Assembly (NCBI RefSeq): GCF_046105845.1
Contig: NZ_CP151004.1
Direction: 5' to 3' (one strand)
Source: Escherichia coli
Lineage (GTDB): Bacteria; Pseudomonadota; Gammaproteobacteria; Enterobacterales; Enterobacteriaceae
Length of the DNA stretch: 64,000 nucleotides
Of the stretch, positions 9,272 through 38,147 are shown piece by piece. The notes beneath the pieces were generated by a model. The model did no database searches. It was not told where the DNA came from and worked only from the letters and a program-made list of their open reading frames with translations. Each line of letters begins with the position of its first letter. The stretch's first letter is position 1. The position numbers were made by a program, and so were the translations under genes.

Positions 9272-10643
9272 AGAGTTCCCCGCGCCAGCGGGGATAAACC
9301 GTTGTCCTGCTGAACCAAGTAAGCCACTGACAAGAGTTCCCCGCGCCAGCGGGGATAAACCGCATTATATCCTGTGCGTCGTTCATTTATTTACGAGTTC
9401 CCCGCGCCAGCGGGGATAAACCGGCCGCCGCATGGCAAAACAAACATCGGGGTACGAGTTCCCCGCGCCAGCGGGGATAAACCGGAACGGCGGCTATACG
9501 GATTCGACAGGTCAGCGAGTTCCCCGCGCCAGCGGGGATAAACCGGATTGAATGCAGATGGTTCAATGCTCGCATTCGAGTTCCCCGCGCCAGCGGGGAT
9601 AAACCGCCACGCGTGCTTTGAGTGGATGGTGTCGCTTGGAGTTCCCCGCGCCAGCGGGGATAAACCGATACATTATTAAGCGGGCAATTTTTCCAGTTTG
9701 AGTTCCCCGCGCCAGCGGGGATAAACCGAACGGCACGGCCTGCCGCCACGTCCCGCAGCTGAGTTCCCCGCGCCAGCGGGGATAAACCGGGGCCGTGTTT
9801 TCTAACGGATTCGCACATTGCGAGTTCCCCGCGCCAGCGGGGATAAACCGCAGCAGTTCAATACTGAAATCAACATGCCGATGAGTTCCCCGCGCCAGCG
9901 GGGATAAACCGCGCGGTGGGGTTTCATTCGCATCAATTCAAGGGAGTTCCCCGCGCCAGCGGGGATAAACCGGCGGTGAGTGAGAAAATCAGGACGGCTG
10001 CGAGGAGTTCCCCGCGCCAGCGGGGATAAACCGCGCCAAATATGCTGGTGGACTTCTACGCCGATGAGTTCCCCGCGCCAGCGGGGATAAACCGCTATCG
10101 ACGGTCAAGAAAATCCACCGGAAGAAGAGTTCCCCGCGCCAGCGGGGATAAACCGGCAGCAATATATTTGACATAATAGATAACCCGGAGTTCCCCGCGC
10201 CAGCGGGGATAAACCGACGCCAGGGGAGATATAACGCGCCTGTTATGGGAGTTCCCCGCGCCAGCGGGGATAAACCGGTCTTAACTAAAAGATGACCATT
10301 CAGTCGCAGGAGTTCCCCGCGCCAGCGGGGATAAACCGCGGCCCATAATATTAATATAATCCACATGAGGGAGTTCCCCGCGCCAGCGGGGATAAACCGC
10401 GCCGGAAATCATCGTTCTGTAATTGTCTAGCGAGTTCCCCGCGCCAGCGGGGATAAACCGCCCTGTTTGTTATTCCCATTATACGTATAAGAGAGTTCCC
10501 CGCGCCAGCGGGGATAAACCGCTTCTGGCTGGAGGTGGAGAAACGGAGGCAATGAGTTCCCCGCGTTAGCGGGGATAAACCGGATTTAGAGAGCCAGACG
10601 TTGGTCAGTTATTCGAGTTCCCCGCGTCAGCGGGGATAACCAT
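9272..10643 (+). CRISPR. orphan type I-E CRISPR array, 23 repeats / 22 spacers
   Basis: 29-bp repeat GAGTTCCCCGCGCCAGCGGGGATAAACCG at 61-bp period (first interval 62); last two repeats degenerate (GCGTTAGCGGGG; GCGTCAGCGGGGATAACCAT); no cas genes adjacent. Confidence 0.97.
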
Positions 10644-26840: not shown

Positions 26841-29507
26841 ATGGAACCTTTTAAATATATATGTCATTACTGGGGGAAATCCTCAAAAAGCCTGACGAAA
26901 GGAAATGATATTCATCTGTTGATTTATCATTGCCTGGATGTTGCAGCTGTTGCAGATTGCTGGTGGGATCAATCAGTCGTACTACAAAATGCTTTTTGCC
27001 GAAATGAAATGCTATCAAAACAGAAGGTGAAAGCCTGGCTGTTATTTTTCATTGCCCTTCATGATATCGGAAAGTTTGATATACGATTCCAATATAAATC
27101 AGCAGAAAGTTGGCTGAAATTAAATCCTGCAACGCCATCACTTAATGGTCCATCAACACAAATGTGCCGTAAATTTAATCATGGTGCAGCCGGTCTGTAT
27201 TGGTTTAACCAGGATTCACTTTCAGAGCAATCTCCCGGGGATTTTTTCAGTTTTTTTGATGCCGCTCCTCATCCTTATGAGTCCTGGTTTCCATGGGTAG
27301 AGGCCGTTACAGGACATCATGGTTTTATATTACATTCCCAGGATCAAGATAAGTCGCGTTGGGAAATGCCAGCTTCTCTGGCATCTTATGCTGCGCAAGA
27401 TAAACAGGCTCGTGAGGAGTGGATATCTGTACTCGAAGCATTATTTTTAACGCCAGCTGGGTTATCTATAAACGATATACCACCTGATTGTTCATCACTG
27501 TTAGCAGGTTTTTGCTCGCTTGCTGACTGGTTAGGTTCCTGGACCACAACGGATACCTTTCTATTCAAAGAAGATGCACCTTCAGGCATACAAGCGCTAA
27601 GAACATATTTTCAGTATAGACAACAGGATGCGTGTCGGGTACTGGAGTTGAGTGGCCTTGTATCAAATAAGCGTAGTTATGACGGCGTACATGCCTTACT
27701 GGACAATGGCTATCAACCAAGACAATTACAGGTGTTGGTTGATGCTCTTCCTACAGCTCCCGGGCTGACGGTGATTGAGGCACCTACGGGATCAGGTAAA
27801 ACCGAAACAGCGCTGGCCTATGCCTGGAAACTTATTGACCAACAACTTGCGGAGAGTGTTATTTTTGCCCTCCCTACACAAGCTACTGCAAATGCAATGC
27901 TCAGTAGAATGGAAGCGAACGCGAGCCGTTTATTTACCTCCCCAAATCTTATTCTTGCTCATGGTAATTCACGTTTTAACCACCTTTTTCAATCAATAAA
28001 ATCACGCGCATTTACTGAGCAGGGGCAAGAAGAAGCATGGGTTCAGTGTTGCCAATGGTTGTCACAAAGTAATAAGAAAGTGTTTCTAGGGCAAATAGGC
28101 GTTTGCACGATTGATCAGGTATTGATATCGGTATTGCCAGTTAAACATCGCTTTATCCGTGGTTTGGGAATTGGTCGAAGTATTTTAATTGTTGATGAAG
28201 TTCATGCTTACGACACGTATATGAACGGCTTGCTGGAGGCTGTGCTCAAGGCTCAGGCTGATGTGGGAGGGAGTGTTATTCTTCTTTCCGCAACTCTACC
28301 AATGAAACAAAAACAGAAACTTCTGGATACTTATGGTCTGCATACAGATCCAGAGGAAAATAACTCCGCATATCCACTCATTAACTGGCGAGGTGTGAAT
28401 GGTGCACAACGTTTTGATCTGTTAGCTCATCCAGAACAACTCCCGCCCCGCTTTTCGATTCGGCCAGAACCTATTTATTTAGCTGACATGTTACCTGACC
28501 TTAGGATGTTAGAGCGAATGATCGCAGCGGCAAATGCGGGTGCACAAGTCTGTCTTATCTGCAATTTGGTTGATGTTGCACAACTATGCCACCAACGGTT
28601 AAAGGAACTAAATAACACGCAAGTAGATATAGATTTGTTTCATGCGCGCTTTACGCTGAACGATCGTCGTGAAAAAGAGAATCGAGTTATTAGCAATTTC
28701 GGCAAAAATGGGAAGCGAAATGTTGGACGGATACTTGTCGCCACCCAGGTCGTGGAACAATCACTCGACGTTGATTTTGATTGGTTAATTACTCAGCATT
28801 GCCCCGCAGATTTACTTTTCCAACGATTGGGCCGTTTACATCGCCATCATCGCAAATATCGTCCCGCTGGTTTTGAGGTTCCTCTTGCCACCGTTTTGCT
28901 GCCTGATGGCGAAGGTTACGGACGACATGAGCATATTTATAGCAACGTTAGAGTCATGTGGCGGACGCAGCAACATATTGAGGAACTTAATGGAGCATCC
29001 TTATTTTTCCCCGATGCCTACCGGCAATGGCTGGATAGCATTTACGATGATGCTGAAATGGATGAGCCAGAATGGGTCATCAAAGGCATGGATAAGTTTG
29101 AAAGCGCTGAGTGTGAAAAGAGGTTCAAGGCTCGCAAGGTTCTGCAGTGGGCTGAAGAATATAGCTTGCAGGATAACGATGAAACAATTCTTGCGGTAAC
29201 GAGGGATGGGGAAATGAGCCTGCCATTATTGCCTTATTTACAAACGTCTTCAGGTAAACAACTGCTCGATGGCCAGGTCTACGAGGACCTAAGTCATGAA
29301 CAGCAGTATGAGGCGTTAGCACTTAATCGCGTCAATGTACCCTTCACCTGGAAACGTAATTTTTCTGAAGTAGTAGATGAAGATGGGTTACTTTGGCTGG
29401 AAGGGAAACAGAATCAGAATGGATGGATCTGGCAGGGTAATAATATTGTTATTACCTACACTCGGGATGAAGGGATGACCAGAGTCATCCCTGCAAATCC
29501 CAAATAA
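26841..29507 (+). CDS. cas3: Cas3 nuclease-helicase (type I-E)
   Basis: 888-aa ORF; N-terminal HD domain (HxxxxD, IALHDIGK), DEAD/DEAH helicase motifs (GSGKTE, DEVH). Confidence 0.95.
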   Translation: MEPFKYICHYWGKSSKSLTKGNDIHLLIYHCLDVAAVADCWWDQSVVLQNAFCRNEMLSKQKVKAWLLFFIALHDIGKFDIRFQYKSAESWLKLNPATPSLNGPSTQMCRKFNHGAAGLYWFNQDSLSEQSPGDFFSFFDAAPHPYESWFPWVEAVTGHHGFILHSQDQDKSRWEMPASLASYAAQDKQAREEWISVLEALFLTPAGLSINDIPPDCSSLLAGFCSLADWLGSWTTTDTFLFKEDAPSGIQALRTYFQYRQQDACRVLELSGLVSNKRSYDGVHALLDNGYQPRQLQVLVDALPTAPGLTVIEAPTGSGKTETALAYAWKLIDQQLAESVIFALPTQATANAMLSRMEANASRLFTSPNLILAHGNSRFNHLFQSIKSRAFTEQGQEEAWVQCCQWLSQSNKKVFLGQIGVCTIDQVLISVLPVKHRFIRGLGIGRSILIVDEVHAYDTYMNGLLEAVLKAQADVGGSVILLSATLPMKQKQKLLDTYGLHTDPEENNSAYPLINWRGVNGAQRFDLLAHPEQLPPRFSIRPEPIYLADMLPDLRMLERMIAAANAGAQVCLICNLVDVAQLCHQRLKELNNTQVDIDLFHARFTLNDRREKENRVISNFGKNGKRNVGRILVATQVVEQSLDVDFDWLITQHCPADLLFQRLGRLHRHHRKYRPAGFEVPLATVLLPDGEGYGRHEHIYSNVRVMWRTQQHIEELNGASLFFPDAYRQWLDSIYDDAEMDEPEWVIKGMDKFESAECEKRFKARKVLQWAEEYSLQDNDETILAVTRDGEMSLPLLPYLQTSSGKQLLDGQVYEDLSHEQQYEALALNRVNVPFTWKRNFSEVVDEDGLLWLEGKQNQNGWIWQGNNIVITYTRDEGMTRVIPANPK

Positions 29508-29921
29508 CTTCGGGAATGATTGGTATCAATGACGATAACAAGACCAATAACGGTTTATCCCTACTTAAGTAGGGAAGGTGCACAATGTACATCTTCTTTT
29601 AATTTCCCGGTATGAGATTTTATATTCACAGTATGAATATTTTATGTAATAAAATTCATGGTGATTATTATAACTAAAAATTTCTTTGATAATAAAACGA
29701 ATAACTTGCAGATTTGAAATGCATGCATTATTGTCTTTAAACAATTCAACACATCTTAATATATGCATAGGTTAATTGTATTAAACCAATGGATATATTT
29801 TTGCAGTGAATGTGATTATTGAATTAATTACGCCGTATTTTTTCTTTGTTTTTACCGATAACGGAAGTGTGCCGACGTATAGAAATGCAGGAGAAATGTC
29901 GGAGCATATGAAGGAGAACAA
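29508..29921 (+). promoter_or_regulatory. AT-rich intergenic region upstream of cse1 (Cascade operon promoter region)
   Basis: 414-bp strongly AT-rich tract between cas3 and cse1; in K-12 the corresponding region holds the H-NS-repressed, LeuO-activated Pcas promoter. Confidence 0.55.
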
Positions 29922-31430
29922 ATGAATTTGCTTATTGATAACTGGATCCCTGTACGCCCGCGAAACGGGGGGAAAGTCCAAATCATAAATCTGCAATCGC
30001 TATACTGCAGTAGAGATCAGTGGCGATTAAGTTTGCCCCGTGACGATATGGAACTGGCCGCTTTAGCACTGCTGGTTTGCATTGGGCAAATTATCGCCCC
30101 GGCAAAAGATGACGTTGAATTTCGACATCGCATAATGAATCCGCTCACTGAAGATGAGTTTCAACAACTCATCGCGCCGTGGATAGATATGTTCTACCTT
30201 AATCACGCAGAACATCCCTTTATGCAGACCAAAGGTGTCAAAGCAAATGATGTGACTCCAATGGAAAAACTGTTGGCTGGGGTAAGCGGCGCGACGAATT
30301 GTGCATTTGTCAATCAACCGGGGCAGGGTGAAGCATTATGTGGTGGATGCACTGCGATTGCGTTATTCAACCAGGCGAATCAGGCACCTGGTTTTGGTGG
30401 TGGCTTTAAAAGCGGTTTACGTGGAGGAACACCTATAACCACCTTCGTATGTGGGATCGATCTTCGCTCGACGGTGTTACTCAATGTCCTCACAATACCT
30501 CGTCTTCAAAAACAATTTCCCAATGAATCAAATACGGAAAACCAACCTACCTGGATTAAGCCTGTCAAGCCCAATGAATCTGTGCCAGCTTCGTCAATTG
30601 GGTTTGTCCGTGGCTTATTCTGGCAACCAGCGCATATTGAATTATGCGATCCCATTGGGATTGGTAAATGTTCTTGCTGTGGACAGGAAAGCAATTTGCG
30701 TTATACAGGTTTTCTTAAGGAAAAATTTACCTTTACAGTTAATGGGCTATGGCCCCATCCGCATTCCCCTTGTCTGGTAACAGTCAAGAAAGGGGAGGTT
30801 GAGGAAAAATTTCTTGCTTTCACCACCTCCGCACCATCATGGACACAAATCAGCCGAGTTGTGGTAGATAAGATTATTCAAAATGAAAATGGAAATCGCG
30901 TGGCGGCGGTTGTGAATCAATTCAGAAATATTGCGCCGCAAAGTCCTCTTGAATTGATTATGGGGGGATATCGTAATAATCAAGCATCTATTCTTGAACG
31001 GCGTCATGATGTGTTGATGTTTAATCAGGGGTGGCAACAATACGGCAATGTGATAAACGAAATAGTGACTGTTGGTTTGGGATATAAAACAGCCTTACGC
31101 AAGGCGTTATATACCTTTGCAGAAGGGTTTAAAAATAAAGACTTCAAAGGGGCCGGAGTCTCTGTTCATGAGACTGCAGAAAGGCATTTCTATCGACAGA
31201 GTGAATTATTAATTCCCGATGTACTGGCGAATATTAATTTTTCCCAAGCTGATGAGGTAATAGCTGATCTACGAGACAAACTTCATCAATTGTGTGAAAT
31301 GCTATTTAATCAATCTGTAGCTCCCTATGCACATCATCCTAAATTAATAAGCACATTAGCGCTTGCCCGCGCCACGCTATACAAACATTTACGGGAGTTA
31401 AAACCGCAAGGAGGGTCATCAAATGGCTGA
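29922..31430 (+). CDS. casA: Cascade large subunit Cse1/CasA
   Basis: 502-aa ORF MNLLIDNWIPVRPRNGGKVQIINLQSL... Confidence 0.93.
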   Translation: MNLLIDNWIPVRPRNGGKVQIINLQSLYCSRDQWRLSLPRDDMELAALALLVCIGQIIAPAKDDVEFRHRIMNPLTEDEFQQLIAPWIDMFYLNHAEHPFMQTKGVKANDVTPMEKLLAGVSGATNCAFVNQPGQGEALCGGCTAIALFNQANQAPGFGGGFKSGLRGGTPITTFVCGIDLRSTVLLNVLTIPRLQKQFPNESNTENQPTWIKPVKPNESVPASSIGFVRGLFWQPAHIELCDPIGIGKCSCCGQESNLRYTGFLKEKFTFTVNGLWPHPHSPCLVTVKKGEVEEKFLAFTTSAPSWTQISRVVVDKIIQNENGNRVAAVVNQFRNIAPQSPLELIMGGYRNNQASILERRHDVLMFNQGWQQYGNVINEIVTVGLGYKTALRKALYTFAEGFKNKDFKGAGVSVHETAERHFYRQSELLIPDVLANINFSQADEVIADLRDKLHQLCEMLFNQSVAPYAHHPKLISTLALARATLYKHLRELKPQGGSSNG

Positions 31431-31905
31431 TGAAATTGATGCAATAGCTTTATATCGAGCCTGGCAACAACTGGATAATGGAGCATGTGCGCAAATTAGA
31501 CGTGTTTCAGAACCTGATGAATTACGCGATATCCCTGCGTTTTATAGGCTGGTGCAACCTTTTGGTTGGGAAAACCCACGTCACCAGCAGGCTCTTTTGC
31601 GCATGGTGTTTTGCCTGAGCGCAGGAAAGAATGTCATCCGACATCAGGACAAAAAACCGGAGCAAATAACAGGTATCTCGTTGGGAAGAGCTTTAGCCAA
31701 TAGTGGAAGAATTAACGAGCGCCGTATCTTTCAATTAATTCGGGCTGACAGAACAGCCGATATGGTCCAGTTACGTCGATTACTTACTCACGCCGAACCC
31801 GTACTTGACTGGCCATTAATGGCCAGGATGTTGACCTGGTGGGGAAAGCGCGAACGCCAGCAACTTCTGGAAGATTTTGTATTGACCACAAACAAAAATG
31901 CGTAA
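31423..31905 (+). CDS. casB: Cascade small subunit Cse2/CasB
   Basis: 160-aa ORF, 8-nt overlap with cse1. Confidence 0.9.
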   Translation: MADEIDAIALYRAWQQLDNGACAQIRRVSEPDELRDIPAFYRLVQPFGWENPRHQQALLRMVFCLSAGKNVIRHQDKKPEQITGISLGRALANSGRINERRIFQLIRADRTADMVQLRRLLTHAEPVLDWPLMARMLTWWGKRERQQLLEDFVLTTNKNA

Positions 31906-31917
31906 GGAAACCTTTCT

Positions 31918-33009
31918 ATGTCTAACTTTATCAATATTCATGTTCTGATCTCTCACAGCCCTTCATGTCTGAACCGCGACGATATGAACATGCAGAAAGA
32001 CGCTATTTTCGGCGGGAAAAGACGAGTAAGAATTTCAAGTCAAAGCCTTAAACGTGCGATGCGTAAAAGTGATTATTACGCACAAAATATTGGTGAATCC
32101 AGTCTCAGAACAATTCATCTTGCACAATTACGTGATGTTCTTCGGCAAAAACTTGGTGAACGTTTTGACCAAAAAATCATCGATAAGACATTAGCGCTGC
32201 TCTCCGGTAAATTAGTTGATGAAGCCGAAAAGATTTCTGCCGATGCGGTTACTCCATGGGTTGTGGGAGAAATAGCCTGGTTCTGTGAGCAGGTTGCAAA
32301 AGCAGAGGCTGATAATCTGGATGATAAAAAGCTGCTCAAAGTTCTTAAGGAAGATATTGCCGCCATACGTGTGAATTTACAGCAGGGTGTTGATATTGCG
32401 CTTAGTGGAAGAATGGCAACCAGCGGCATGATGAGTGAGTTGGGAAAAGTTGATGGTGCAATGTCCATTGCGCATGCGATCACTACTCATCAGGTTGATT
32501 CTGATATTGACTGGTTCACCGCTGTAGATGATTTACAGGAACAAGGTTCTGCACATCTGGGAACTCAGGAATTTTCATCGGGTGTTTTTTATCGTTATGC
32601 CAACATTAACCTCGCTCAACTTCAGGAAAATTTAGGTGGAGCCTCCAGGGAGCAGGCTCTGGAAATTGCAACCCATGTTGTTCATATGCTGGCAACAGAG
32701 GTCCCTGGAGCAAAACAGCGTACTTATGCCGCTTTTAACCCTGCGGATATGGTAATGGTTAATTTCTCCGATATGCCACTTTCTATGGCAAATGCTTTTG
32801 AAAAAGCGGTTAAAGCGAAAGATGGCTTTTTGCAACCGTCTATACAGGCGTTTAATCAATATTGGGATCGCGTTGCCAATGGATATGGTCTGAACGGAGC
32901 AGCTGCGCAATTCAGCTTATCTGATGTAGACCCAATTACTGCTCAAGTTAAACAAATGCCTACTTTAGAACAGTTAAAATCCTGGGTTCGTAATAATGGC
33001 GAGGCGTGA
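31918..33009 (+). CDS. casC: Cascade backbone Cas7/CasC
   Basis: 363-aa [52 protein letters not shown]... Confidence 0.93.
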
Positions 33010-33011
33010 AC

Positions 33012-33686
33012 ATGAGATCTTATTTGATCTTGCGGCTTGCTGGGCCAATGCAAGCCTGGGGGCAGCCGACCTTTGAAGGAACGCGACCTACCAGAAGATT
33101 TCCGACCCGAAGCGGGTTATTAGGGCTACTCGGGGCTTGTCTTGGGATCCAACGTGATGATACTTCTTCATTACAGGCGTTATCAGAGAGTGTGCAATTT
33201 GCAGTGCGCTGCGATGAACTCATTCTTGACGATCGTCGTGTGTCTGTAACGGGGTTGCGTGATTACCATACAGTCCTTGGAGCGCGAGAAGATTACCGTG
33301 GTTTGAAAAGTCATGAAACGATTCAAACATGGCGCGAATATTTATGTGATGCCTCCTTTACCGTCGCTCTCTGGTTAACACCCCATGCAACGATGGTTAT
33401 CTCAGAACTTGAAAAAGCAGTATTAAAGCCTCGGTATACACCCTACCTGGGGCGAAGAAGTTGCCCACTAACACACCCGCTTTTTTTGGGGACATGTCAG
33501 GCATCGGATCCTCAGAAGGCGCTATTAAATTATGAGCCCGTTGGCGGCGATATTTATAGTGAGGAATCAGTTACAGGGCATCATTTAAAATTTACGGCGC
33601 GCGACGAACCGATGATCACCTTACCTCGACAATTTGCTTCCCGAGAATGGTATGTGATTAAAGGAGGTATGGATGTATCTCAGTAA
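33012..33686 (+). CDS. casD: Cascade Cas5/CasD
   Basis: 224 aa from MRSYLILRLAGPMQAWGQPTFEG... Confidence 0.9.
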   Translation: MRSYLILRLAGPMQAWGQPTFEGTRPTRRFPTRSGLLGLLGACLGIQRDDTSSLQALSESVQFAVRCDELILDDRRVSVTGLRDYHTVLGAREDYRGLKSHETIQTWREYLCDASFTVALWLTPHATMVISELEKAVLKPRYTPYLGRRSCPLTHPLFLGTCQASDPQKALLNYEPVGGDIYSEESVTGHHLKFTARDEPMITLPRQFASREWYVIKGGMDVSQ

Positions 33687-34272
33687 AGTCATCATTGCCA
33701 GGGCCTGGAGCAGGGATCTTTACCAACTTCACCAGGGATTATGGCATTTATTTCCAAACAGACCGGATGCTGCTCGTGATTTTCTTTTTCATGTTGAGAA
33801 GCGAAACACACCAGAAGGCTGTCATGTTTTATTGCAGTCAGCGCAAATACCTGTTTCAACTGCCGTTGCGACAGTCATTAAAACTAAACAGGTTGAATTT
33901 CAACTTCAGGTTGGTGTTCCACTCTATTTTCGGCTTCGGGCAAATCCGATCAAAACTATTCTCGACAATCAAAAGCGCCTGGACAGTAAAGGGAATATTA
34001 AACGCTGTCGGGTTCCGTTAATAAAAGAAGCAGAACAAATCGCGTGGTTGCAACGTAAATTGGGCAATGCGGCGCGCGTTGAAGATGTGCATCCCATATC
34101 GGAACGGCCACAGTATTTTTCTGGTGATGGTAAAAGTGGAAAGATCCAAACGGTTTGCTTTGAAGGGGTGATCACCATCAACGACGCGCCAGTGTTAATA
34201 GATCTTGTACAGCAAGGTATTGGGCCAGCTAAATCGATGGGATGTGGCTTGCTATCTTTGGCTCCACTGTGA
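33673..34272 (+). CDS. casE: Cas6e/CasE crRNA endoribonuclease
   Basis: 199-aa ORF MYLSKVIIARAWSRDLYQLHQGLWHLF...; overlaps cas5 end. Confidence 0.93.
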   Translation: MYLSKVIIARAWSRDLYQLHQGLWHLFPNRPDAARDFLFHVEKRNTPEGCHVLLQSAQIPVSTAVATVIKTKQVEFQLQVGVPLYFRLRANPIKTILDNQKRLDSKGNIKRCRVPLIKEAEQIAWLQRKLGNAARVEDVHPISERPQYFSGDGKSGKIQTVCFEGVITINDAPVLIDLVQQGIGPAKSMGCGLLSLAPL

Positions 34273-34287
34273 TTGAGGTGTAATAAA

Positions 34288-35491
<1,204 letters not shown>

Positions 35492-35596
35492 AAACAAAGA
35501 ATTAGCTGATCTTTAATAATAAGGAAATGTTACATTAAGGTTGGTGGGTTGTTTTTATGGGAAAAAATGCTTTAAGAACAAATGTATACTTTTAGA
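35492..35596 (+). promoter_or_regulatory. CRISPR leader of cas-adjacent array
   Basis: AT-rich ...ATGCTTTAAGAACAAATGTATACTTTTAGA directly 5' of first repeat. Confidence 0.8.
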
Positions 35597-37089
35597 GAGT
35601 TCCCCGCGCCAGCGGGGATAAACCGTCCGATCCGAAAAAACGGGTAGTCGCCTACGAGAGTTCCCCGCGCCAGCGGGGATAAACCGCCCAGTGGCGAAGG
35701 GCAACGTAAGCATAAAACGAGTTCCCCGCGCCAGCGGGGATAAACCGGGGTAACACCGTGGCAGCAAGTCGATCCGCTGGAGTTCCCCGCGCCAGCGGGG
35801 ATAAACCTGATGCGCGCCGACTTGAATCACTGCGCATGGCGAGTTCCCCGCGCCAGCGGGGATAAACCGATGGACCGTGCCGCTTTTCGCCACCTGACGC
35901 CGAGTTCCCCGCGCCAGCGGGGATAAACCGTGGCTCCGGTCGGGGCCCGCCGCTTGCGGTGGGAGTTCCCCGCGCCAGCGGGGATAAACCGGTGCGTGAA
36001 TTATCTATCCAGGCAAAAGTAACGAGTTCCCCGCGCCAGCGGGGATAAACCGCATATTTTTCAGGATATCTATAAATGGGCGGGGAGTTCCCCGCGCCAG
36101 CGGGGATAAACCGCTCATCAAAATAATCGGCATTGTCAGAAATCCGAGTTCCCCGCGCCAGCGGGGATAAACCGTGCACTGGCTGACTACGCCGCAGCAC
36201 ATAAATGAGTTCCCCGCGCCAGCGGGGATAAACCGATAATTGATGCGATCTGGTCCACTACAGTGGCGAGTTCCCCGCGCCAGCGGGGATAAACCGTAGT
36301 TGCTGTTTAGGCTGTGTTGTGGTTACCAGAGTTCCCCGCGCCAGCGGGGATAAACCGACCTGCTCGCGATGCGTCTGCCGCTGGAACCCGAGTTCCCCGC
36401 GCCAGCGGGGATAAACCGTTGCGCGATCCATCGCTCAGCTTTGATCATGAGAGTTCCCCGCGCCAGCGGGGATAAACCGCGCAGCGCCGACGAACTGGAC
36501 GGCGCTATAAAGAGTTCCCCGCGCCAGCGGGGATAAACCGATGTGGCAGAAATTGATGGAGCGGATGTGCGAGAGTTCCCCGCGCCAGCGGGGATAAACC
36601 GATTTAGATACGGCACACAGGAATGCGCTGGATGAGTTCCCCGCGCCAGCGGGGATAAACCGCGGCTGGCTGTAATAATGCACGGCAGTGTGACGAGTTC
36701 CCCGCGCCAGCGGGGATAAACCGTGAATAATAAGGCGCTGACGGGCGATATTACGGAGTTCCCCGCGCCAGCGGGGATAAACCGGAACAACCTGAACGGA
36801 TGCCACCTTTTCACCTGAGTTCCCCGCGCCAGCGGGGATAAACCAACCGTCAGCATAGACCCATCTAGTCAGATTCTGTGTTCCCCGCGCCAGCGGGGAT
36901 AAACCGGCCCATTCCCCCCATACCGGCGGCAAGTTTAAGTGTTCCCCGCGCCAGCGGGGATAAACCGATTCCGTCAAATTTATCACTCAACGCCAGTTCG
37001 TGTTCCCCGCGCCAGCGGGGATAAACCGGGCGCACTGGATGCGATGATGGATATCACTTAGAATTCCCCGCCCCTGCGGTAGAACTCGC
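35597..37089 (+). CRISPR. type I-E CRISPR array, 25 repeats / 24 spacers
   Basis: 29-bp repeat GAGTTCCCCGCGCCAGCGGGGATAAACCG at strict 61-bp period; last three full repeats begin GTGTTCCCC; terminal repeat degenerate (GAATTCCCCGCCCCTGCGGTAGAACTCGC). Confidence 0.98.
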
Positions 37090-37109: not shown

Positions 37110-38147
37110 TCAAGACGCCTTCGCCAGCTCCTTCACCAGAGGTAGCATTATCCGCATAACATCACGGCAGCGACGTTCTATTCTTCCTGGAAGTGCCTTA
37201 TCAATATGTTGTTGATTATCCAGTCTTACGTCATGCCAGCTATTTCCCGCAGGGAATGCAGCTGTTTTTGCGCGTTGCTGATAACCATCCTTATTCCCAA
37301 GATTCCAATTTGTTGCTTCTACCGAAAGTACGGCAATACCGGCTTTGTCGAAAACTTCGGCGTCATTACAACAGCCAGTACCCTTCGGATAATTTTTATT
37401 CAAACCCGGATTGGTCGTTGCGGCAATTCCATGACTACGCGCAATTGCCAGTGCCCTGTCGCGCGTTAATTTCCTTACTGCTTCAGGGGTTTTTACACCA
37501 CTATTGAAATACAATTTATCGCCAACAATTAAGTTATCGAGATTAATCACCAGCAGCGTATTTTTCTTTTCGGTGTCACTCATCCGCTTGAGTAAATTCT
37601 CAGCGCCTAATTTCCCTTCCTCTTCACCGCTGGTCGCCACAAATCGAATACCATACTCGGTAGGCGTATTTTTCAGGCGTTCTGCCAGTTCCAGCATAAC
37701 ACCTAAACCTGCGGCGTTATCATCTATTCCTTGTAACGTCAGCCCGCCGAGATTGGCATCGGCGTCAGCATCGCTCAGCGGAGCGTAAGTATCCAGATGC
37801 GCCATAATGATGATCTGCTGCGGCGCTTTGCCTTCATGAGCGGCAATCACCGTACTTCCCGTCACGTTATGCCAGCTCTTGCGATTATCGCGGGCGGTAT
37901 AAATATACCGACTATTAAATGTCCGAATATCACTGCGATAACCCATTTGCTGAAACTGCTGGCGAATATAATCGGCAGATAACATTTCTGCAGGAGTTCC
38001 GGTCATGCGTCCCGGAAAGAAAGTAGCAATATGTCGTGCCTGGGTATTAGCAAAATCGCCAGGTTTAGGTGACGAGGCGTGTACGGGGAGAATAAAGCAT
38101 ACGCCGAGCGCCAGGGCAGCGGTACGGTGGCGCAATGCGGAAAACAT
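37110..38147 (-). CDS. iap: alkaline phosphatase isozyme conversion aminopeptidase
   Basis: 345-aa ORF with signal peptide, M28-type peptidase; position between array and cysD as in K-12. Confidence 0.88.
   Translation of the reverse strand: MFSALRHRTAALALGVCFILPVHASSPKPGDFANTQARHIATFFPGRMTGTPAEMLSADYIRQQFQQMGYRSDIRTFNSRYIYTARDNRKSWHNVTGSTVIAAHEGKAPQQIIIMAHLDTYAPLSDADADANLGGLTLQGIDDNAAGLGVMLELAERLKNTPTEYGIRFVATSGEEEGKLGAENLLKRMSDTEKKNTLLVINLDNLIVGDKLYFNSGVKTPEAVRKLTRDRALAIARSHGIAATTNPGLNKNYPKGTGCCNDAEVFDKAGIAVLSVEATNWNLGNKDGYQQRAKTAAFPAGNSWHDVRLDNQQHIDKALPGRIERRCRDVMRIMLPLVKELAKAS

Follow-up and report, generated by a model that had tools for sequence, protein, structure and literature searches.

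Non-consensus repeats in an Escherichia coli type I-E CRISPR2.1 array: a probable flipped spacer, a three-base difference and an inherited GTG block

Organization of the CRISPR2.1 locus

The analyzed window, a stretch of 64,000 nucleotides from an Escherichia coli contig (NZ_CP151004.1), contains an intact type I-E cas operon, a leader, a cas-adjacent CRISPR array with iap on its trailer side, and a separate orphan array (Table 1). All eight I-E cas open reading frames gave NCBIfam equivalog matches well over the curated cut-offs, and this complete cas set adjoins the array. The array consisted of 24 full 29-nt repeats of the GWGTTCCCCGCGCCAGCGGGGATAAACCG type (35597-37028), separated by 32-nt spacers at an exact 61-nt spacing, with the consensus GAGTTCCCCGCGCCAGCGGGGATAAACCG, which did not occur when the window was shuffled 100 times. 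In homologous E. coli loci, the annotated order is cas2e-CRISPR-iap. Because the eight I-E cas genes and iap, the 61-nt period and the exact consensus repeat occur together, the array is identified as CRISPR2.1, the ordinary I-E array next to the cas genes in E. coli. The leader side is the established entry side for new spacers in the E. coli I-E system (PMC3338789, PMC4081107). As a whole, the array was present in none of 5,426 complete E. coli genomes, among which the best match was 77% over the array.

Table 1. Features of the CRISPR2.1 locus and of the orphan array in the window
Feature	Position	Strand	Basis or remark
Type I-E cas operon, intact: cas3, cse1, cse2, cas7, cas5, cas6e, cas1e, cas2e	26841..35491	+	
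Leader, AT-rich, from the cas2e stop to repeat 1	35492..35596	+	sequence
CRISPR2.1 array: 24 repeats, 24 spacers and a degenerate terminal repeat	35597..37089	+	
Repeat 4, T at position 29 (35808)	35780..35808	+	
Spacer 4 (GATGCGCGCCGACTTGAATCACTGCGCATGGC), probable flipped insertion	35809..35840	+	NY1601 mirror partner; overlapping spacer in 24 genomes
Repeat 21, A at position 29 (36845); final GAG-type repeat, adjoining the GTG block	36817..36845	+	
Spacer 21 (ACCGTCAGCATAGACCCATCTAGTCAGATTCT)	36846..36877	+	positions 4-32 match SSU5-like phage-plasmids 29/29
Inherited trailer block: GTG-initial repeats 22-24 and the spacers 22 and 23 between them	36878..37028	+	
Anchor spacer 24 (GGCGCACTGGATGCGATGATGGATATCACTTA)	37029..37060	+	common across E. 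coli, including K-12
Degenerate terminal repeat	37061..37089	+	homologous terminal copy in K-12-like arrays
iap (aminopeptidase), conserved trailer-side flank	37110..38147	-	
Orphan CRISPR2.3-type array: 22 full repeats and a degenerate terminal copy	9273..10643	+	

The CRISPR2.1 repeats other than 4, 21 and 22-24 were exact copies of the consensus, without any deviation. Repeats 4 and 21 differed in their last base, and repeats 22-24 (starting at 36878, 36939 and 37000) were GTG-initial. The degenerate terminal repeat had 18/29 identity to the consensus, as counted by eye. The orphan array had 21 perfect repeats, with a CC to TT change in the hairpin loop of repeat 22 (10554-10582), and its terminal copy (10615-10643) showed one substitution and a shortened 3' end. 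The ordinals, coordinates and spellings given in an earlier sequence-only reading for repeats 4 and 21, the GTG repeats and the orphan trailer were right base for base. The loop variant of orphan repeat 22, GCGTTAGCG, recurs as repeat 11 of the K-12 CRISPR2.1 array.

Position 29 and PAMs of the control spacers

The last base of the I-E repeat is the third PAM base, which is brought in with the prespacer (Swarts 2012, PMC3338789). As a control, each spacer of the two arrays was taken together with the position 29 before it, and the resulting 33-mers were joined and searched against phages and plasmids. Seven spacers preceded by G at position 29 gave matches of 32-33/33, and the flank of the protospacer was AAG in six of them and GAG in one. 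All seven protospacers had G at -1 in the expected register, as in I-E PAMs (AAG/AWG), and these flanks agreed with the PAM-derived rule for the last repeat base (PMC3338789). In the CRISPR2.1 array, spacers 1 and 10 matched phage P7/P1, spacer 6 matched IncF plasmids and spacer 9 an IncHI1B-type plasmid; orphan-array spacers 8, 16 and 17 matched F traI, an IncN plasmid and R27, respectively. The targets identified for both arrays were mostly plasmids or phage-plasmids: IncF (traI, GAG PAM), IncHI R27, IncN, IncHI1B-type, P1/P7 and an SSU5-like phage-plasmid. The P7/P1 targets of spacers 1 (35625-35657) and 10 (36174-36206) were separated by 604 bp on one and the same strand, close to parB/gp23 (L047 61-93 and 665-697), both with AAG PAMs, a pattern that resembles primed acquisition.

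Complementary spacer pairs and their orientation bias have been described in E. coli (Shmakov 2014, PMC4027179), AAG protospacers favouring the functional orientation by at least 30-fold (PMC4027179), and both slips and flips of prespacers have been described (bioRxiv 10.1101/2020.02.10.942821). Natural units without G at position 29 were surveyed in other species by scanning one genome per species, which yielded 30 such units. A terminal C of the spacer, the signature of a flip, was weakly enriched among them (43% versus 30%, p=0.07-0.08, n=30), and with so weak a trend flips were rejected as the general cause of natural non-G bases at position 29. The signature of a -1 slip, A at position 29 followed by a spacer starting with G, was found in 7/11 of the units with A (p=0.02). 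Because the flip signature was weak and the -1 slip signature clearer, natural non-G units are a mixture of causes. Within E. coli, DETEC-S792 offers a candidate -1 slip of an AAG PAM: its leader-proximal repeat (L055 1116-1176) has A as the last base, and the spacer of this repeat has G as the first.

GTG-initial repeats and the trailer block

In the same one-genome-per-species scan, the arrays of all 24 other enterobacterial species (24/24) used GTG-initial repeats (GTGTTCCCC...). Because all of them use GTG, this spelling is the general enterobacterial allele and GAG an E. coli variant. ECONIH4 and MS 115-1 had GTG throughout save for the last repeat, and K-12 had GAG save for the last repeat.

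The spacers of the trailer block were found in four other genomes. JNE23-011 and JNE112863 had both spacer 22 and spacer 23, 2012C-4502 had only the first of the two, and DETEC-S792 had only the second. Three of these four relatives were parsed, which showed that the anchor spacer was present and that the trailer-block repeats were GTG. Among the parsed relatives, the junction between GAG and GTG repeats preceded spacer 22 in two and spacer 23 in one; in the window, GTG stood upstream of both spacers. Between spacer 23 and the anchor, the relatives kept two or three further spacers that were missing from the window, and repeat 24 of the window had CC at positions 13-14 where the relatives had TC (window 36968-37060 compared with L053-L055). 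These spacer-block and repeat patterns are those that recombinational deletion between repeats produces, and repeat 24 of the window is a hybrid left by such a deletion. In a hybrid of this kind, the 5' end derives from the upstream one of the two repeats, and position 29 remains linked to the spacer downstream. Inter-repeat deletions thus shift the GAG/GTG boundary between strains.

The sequence-only reading had taken the trailer-end variants as marks of the ancestral end and also as signs of decay. The first view agrees with the data, the iap side being the old end and the block being common to four genomes. The second does not, as GTG is the widespread enterobacterial allele and the block is inherited.

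Two further observations were made on single spacers. Spacer 22 (36907-36938) was one base off the copies in JNE23-011 and 2012C-4502, its fifth base being A and theirs G; point substitutions therefore accumulate in old spacers. ECONIH4 (L016 1066-1187) carried two identical adjacent spacers, CATGAACATGGACGATGAAAAAATAAGGGAGG, of which MS 115-1 has one, and the second copy is a tandem duplication of the repeat-spacer unit.

Repeat 4 and spacer 4

The T of repeat 4 and spacer 4 together form the 33-mer TGATGCGCGCCGACTTGAATCACTGCGCATGGC (window 35808-35840). Spacer 2 of the CRISPR2.3 array of strain NY1601 reads ...AAACCG-CCATGCGCAGTGATTCAAGTCGGCGCGCATCA-GAGTT, and the G plus CCATGCGCAGTGATTCAAGTCGGCGCGCATCA was the exact reverse complement, 33/33, of the window 33-mer (T plus GATGCG...ATGGC), with both boundaries identical. 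Spacer 4 thus showed three marks of a flip: an opposite-strand copy preceded by G; a leader-distal terminal C (...ATGGC), which is the complement of that G; and a base at position 29 of the upstream repeat, T, which is the complement of the PAM-distal base, the last A of NY1601 spacer 2.

An overlapping spacer, G-AATTAAATGATTTTGATGCGCGCCGACTTGAA, was found in 24 other genomes (e.g. ECONIH4 and MS 115-1), and the last 19 nt of AATTAAATGATTTTGATGCGCGCCGACTTGAA were the first 19 nt of the window 33-mer. The upstream part of the donor was reconstructed from it as ...ATGATTT-TGATGCGCG..., in which the T is contiguous with the spacer-4 sequence. The T was therefore co-acquired with the spacer, and no mutation of the repeat is involved. 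The flank of spacer 4 in its inserted orientation was TTT, a non-AAG flank. A slip was rejected for spacer 4, because no AAG lies within 2 nt in the upstream donor flank (...ATGATTT). Repeat 4 hence appears to end in T through back-to-front insertion of a 33-bp prespacer, that is, by a flip and not by a slip or an atypical PAM choice. We call this unit a flip because it has a specific mirror-image partner, not on statistical grounds. A flip of a canonical prespacer predicts an AAG on the opposite strand at the far flank of the protospacer. A non-AAG NNG motif yielding both orientations may be an alternative source of spacer 4.

It had been proposed from the sequence that the final repeat nucleotide is co-acquired with the spacer and that a non-G base marks a non-AAG protospacer, slipped or atypical. 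Co-acquisition is true for repeat 4, given the overlapping spacer of the 24 genomes and the published rule (PMC3338789). The TTT flank of spacer 4 is likewise in line with a non-AAG protospacer, but the route was apparently a flip.

The three spacers, namely window spacer 4, NY1601 CRISPR2.3 spacer 2 (on the opposite strand) and the spacer of the 24 genomes, belong to different E. coli lineages but fall on one donor stretch of at most 47 bp, which was reconstructed as AATTAAATGATTTTGATGCGCGCCGACTTGAATCACTGCGCATGGC (window 35808-35840, L002 1508-1540 and L016 1188-1219). The element that donated this stretch was in none of the collections searched (phages, PLSDB, E. coli genomes, IMG/VR and JGI metagenomes). 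For spacer 4 itself, blastn at word size 11 gave no usable protospacer in phages, PLSDB or the 5,426 E. coli genomes; the 46-nt reconstructed donor, searched inside a concatenated query, was absent from PLSDB, and scans of IMG/VR and the JGI metagenomes for an exact 24-mer were negative. Four codon-degenerate IMG/VR scans, covering the four open frames, gave no usable match. The sole non-CRISPR matches were at chance level; MT836205 (25/29, E=0.3) was considered as a target and rejected, because the spacer would place a stop codon in the frame of the gene. The crRNA of spacer 4, facing a TTT flank, would probably not be directly protective. To our knowledge, TTT is not among the established interference PAMs (AAG, ATG, AGG and GAG).

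Repeat 21 and spacer 21

Spacer 21 matched 15 E. coli plasmids, 14 PLSDB plasmids, phage PhiR41_1 and five IMG/VR contigs, in each case at positions 4-32 only. The SSU5-like phage-plasmids with the full match over these positions are about 110 kb in size and come from E. coli, Shigella and E. albertii. Flanks were read in 6 of the 35 sampled relatives (one plasmid and the five IMG/VR contigs), and all six read CTATG-GCTGTCAGC...GATTCT-CACC; the remaining matches stop at the same spacer position. In the flanks read, the protospacer in the expected register had the PAM ATG with G at -1, and the canonical form of spacer 21 is GCTGTCAGCATAGACCCATCTAGTCAGATTCT. In comparison with these sources (ATG-GCT), the array had A for G at -1, A for G at +1 and C for T at +3, all of them transitions, and the next 29 bases were identical (29/29). 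With G at -1 in the sources and A in the array, the last base of repeat 21 is not explained by the PAM of any known source.

The A of repeat 21 had also been taken as a co-acquired atypical PAM base, for which the G at -1 and the ATG PAM of the flanks read give no support. A canonical AAG PAM in the expected register had been named as the finding that would indicate simple point mutation of the repeat; the data came close to this, with G at -1 in register but in an ATG and not an AAG PAM.

The target site of spacer 21 encodes Met-Ala-Val-Ser. Of the listed members of the 90% cluster of this protein, 13 span the site, and every one of them has Met-Ala (13/13). Among distant homologues with 45-72% identity, Met was kept in the two nearest only, most had Asn-Ala, and none had the Thr that would be encoded by the ACC of the array. 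A donor variant with AACC was found neither in IMG/VR with a wobble-degenerate pattern nor in the JGI metagenomes with an exact 24-mer. It was likewise absent from the results of a related-loci search, from tblastn against PLSDB, from the Klebsiella homologues, and from a search of 5.8 billion proteins that included the cluster members.

A flip was rejected for spacer 21 on two counts: its last base is T, and its other flank gives TGA. A slip was rejected as well, because no AAG lies within 2 nt (upstream ...CCCTATG) and the spacer starts with A. A single mutation of the repeat is inadequate, because +1 and +3 also differ. The spacer could have come from an unsampled donor variant, or it could have changed at or after integration.

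A chimeric origin of spacer 21 is unlikely in our view but has several points in its favour. An in-register deletion or replication slippage between a GAG-type upstream repeat and the GTG repeat of a canonical G-GCTGTCAGC... unit, resolved about 4 nt past the repeat, would have left the A at position 29 and the ACC at spacer bases 1-3 from a now-deleted upstream unit. Such an event would explain why the 61-nt register is kept, why the differences cluster at the repeat-proximal end and are followed by a perfect match, and why repeat 21 is the junction repeat between GAG and GTG. Inter-repeat deletions are also frequent in this array family, as the two or three missing spacers and the hybrid repeat 24 show. 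However, the junctions of such deletions are expected within the 28-nt identity and not past it, and no donor unit starting with A-ACC was identified.

It is distinctly improbable that both non-G bases are the last PAM bases of slipped or atypical non-AAG protospacers inserted in the normal orientation. The co-acquired T and the direct TTT flank of spacer 4 fit this explanation, and the A-plus-G units of other species described above suggest that slips are common in nature. However, besides lacking a nearby AAG, spacer 4 has a reversed and otherwise identical 33-mer with G first, which a slip does not predict, and for spacer 21 the G at -1 of the sampled sources, the lack of a nearby AAG and the starting A all stand against it.

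Post-acquisition point mutation of the repeat at both sites is very improbable. The one-base change of spacer 22 relative to JNE23-011 and the repeat loop variants indicate that single substitutions arise, and for repeat 21 the sampled PAM predicts G. For repeat 4, however, mutation is refuted by the donor T, which is recorded independently by two other spacers, and in repeat 21 the change is accompanied by two more substitutions in a span of 4 nt, followed by 29 nt without a mismatch, which would take three independent mutations, a very unlikely course.

It is hardly credible that spacer 21 was captured from a CRISPR array as AACCG, bases 25-29 of the repeat, followed by the first 28 nt of an earlier spacer, G-TCAGC...TTCTCACC, itself a flipped protospacer with a bottom-strand ATG PAM (L001 3033 to 3001): this would explain 33/33 bases without substitution and would place the left edge of the homology (L001 3001) at the end of the 33-mer set by the opposite-strand ATG, but it requires two rare events and loss of the first spacer, the earlier spacer was in no array of the 5,426 E. 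coli genomes, and among 722 unique 33-mers repeat-fragment ends of at least 4 nt were observed 9 times against about 21 expected by shuffling. With no excess of such ends, array-derived spacers were also rejected as a recurrent class.

Proposed origin of the repeat variants

Taken as a whole, the variants are probably best explained by a flip at repeat 4, a three-base difference at repeat 21 and an inherited GTG block at repeats 22-24. In every acquisition event, Cas1-Cas2 copies positions 1-28 of the leader-proximal repeat and adds a 33-bp prespacer, the first base of which turns into position 29 of the upstream repeat. Position 29 comes from the prespacer and is therefore linked to the spacer, and positions 1-28 record the template repeat of that time. 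At repeat 4, the G-anchored end of the prespacer would have been placed at the far side, where it forms the terminal C of the spacer, and the T would have been supplied by the PAM-distal base. At repeat 21, the A would be part of the three-base difference (-1, +1 and +3) from the sampled protospacer copies; one example of how it could have arisen is an in-register inter-repeat deletion with its junction 4 nt inside the spacer. Repeats 22-24 would be an old inherited GTG block, laid down before the leader-proximal template became GAG, and inter-repeat deletions would then have shifted the GAG/GTG boundary differently in each strain.

More speculatively, and with considerable doubt on our part, the unit of spacer 21 might be a natural scar of imprecise array maintenance and not of PAM choice. 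This unit has four deviations, namely position 2 of repeat 21 (A, versus T in repeat 22) and positions -1, +1 and +3. As a scar, all four would fall on one 33-nt non-template tract that is newly synthesised beside the leader during integration. A gapped integration intermediate has been described (PMC4081107). An equivalent form of this idea would be a deletion junction reaching 4 nt into the spacer. If the scar were real and recurrent, repair or recombination at repeat-spacer borders would yield seed-mismatched spacers in wild arrays, and these would be prone to priming and not to interference.

The main value of these data is that of a worked natural example, and nothing in them alters the understanding of type I-E adaptation. 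Everything seen is known type I-E biology, and the sole loose end is the cluster of three bases at the start of spacer 21. Position 29 of the I-E repeat can be read as a per-spacer record of prespacer processing. Here it identifies what appears to be a flipped spacer in a wild strain, the mirror-image partner of which survives in another strain. A caution also follows for the reading of such arrays: a slipped PAM should not be deduced from a non-G base at position 29 alone. The protospacers can speak against it, as they did for spacer 21.

Comparison with known systems

The array was compared with CRISPR I of K-12 (CRISPR2.1; between cas2 (ygbF) and iap), with which it agrees in the repeat consensus, the leader side, the iap flank and the presence of a degenerate terminal repeat. 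The K-12 anchor spacer, GGCGCACTGGATGCGATGATGGATATCACTT, is common to the window and differs at the last base only, and the repeat before it is GTG-initial in K-12 too. However, the number of spacers is 24 in the window array and 13 in K-12, with none shared beyond the anchor. The last K-12 repeat also carries extra changes (GCATCAGCG), and three repeats of the window array are GTG-initial.

Spacer loss by recombination between repeats offers a second comparison. As in known cases, related arrays differed by internal spacer blocks and hybrid repeats. If spacer 21 is chimeric, the break would differ in lying just outside the repeat; we know of no description of such a position in a deletion of this kind.

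Spacer 4 resembles the published flipped spacers in that one 33-bp segment is found in both orientations and in that the canonical orientation has the G adjoining the upstream repeat (PMC4027179; bioRxiv 10.1101/2020.02.10.942821). The published pairs were found by deep sequencing within laboratory populations, whereas the spacer 4 pair is divided between wild strains and between CRISPR2.1 and CRISPR2.3.

A parallel for the position 29 variants was described by Swarts (2012, PMC3338789), who gave the consensus repeat as GWG... and reported a natural CCT repeat in K-12 CRISPR2.3. In that study, as in the window, position 29 varied with the following spacer and was not propagated to newer repeats, and the natural CCT of K-12 CRISPR2.3 repeat 2 parallels repeat 4 of the window. 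In the Swarts cases, the base is the third PAM base of a protospacer in direct orientation. By contrast, the T of window repeat 4 appears to be the PAM-distal end of a reversed prespacer, and the A of window repeat 21 mismatches the known PAM.
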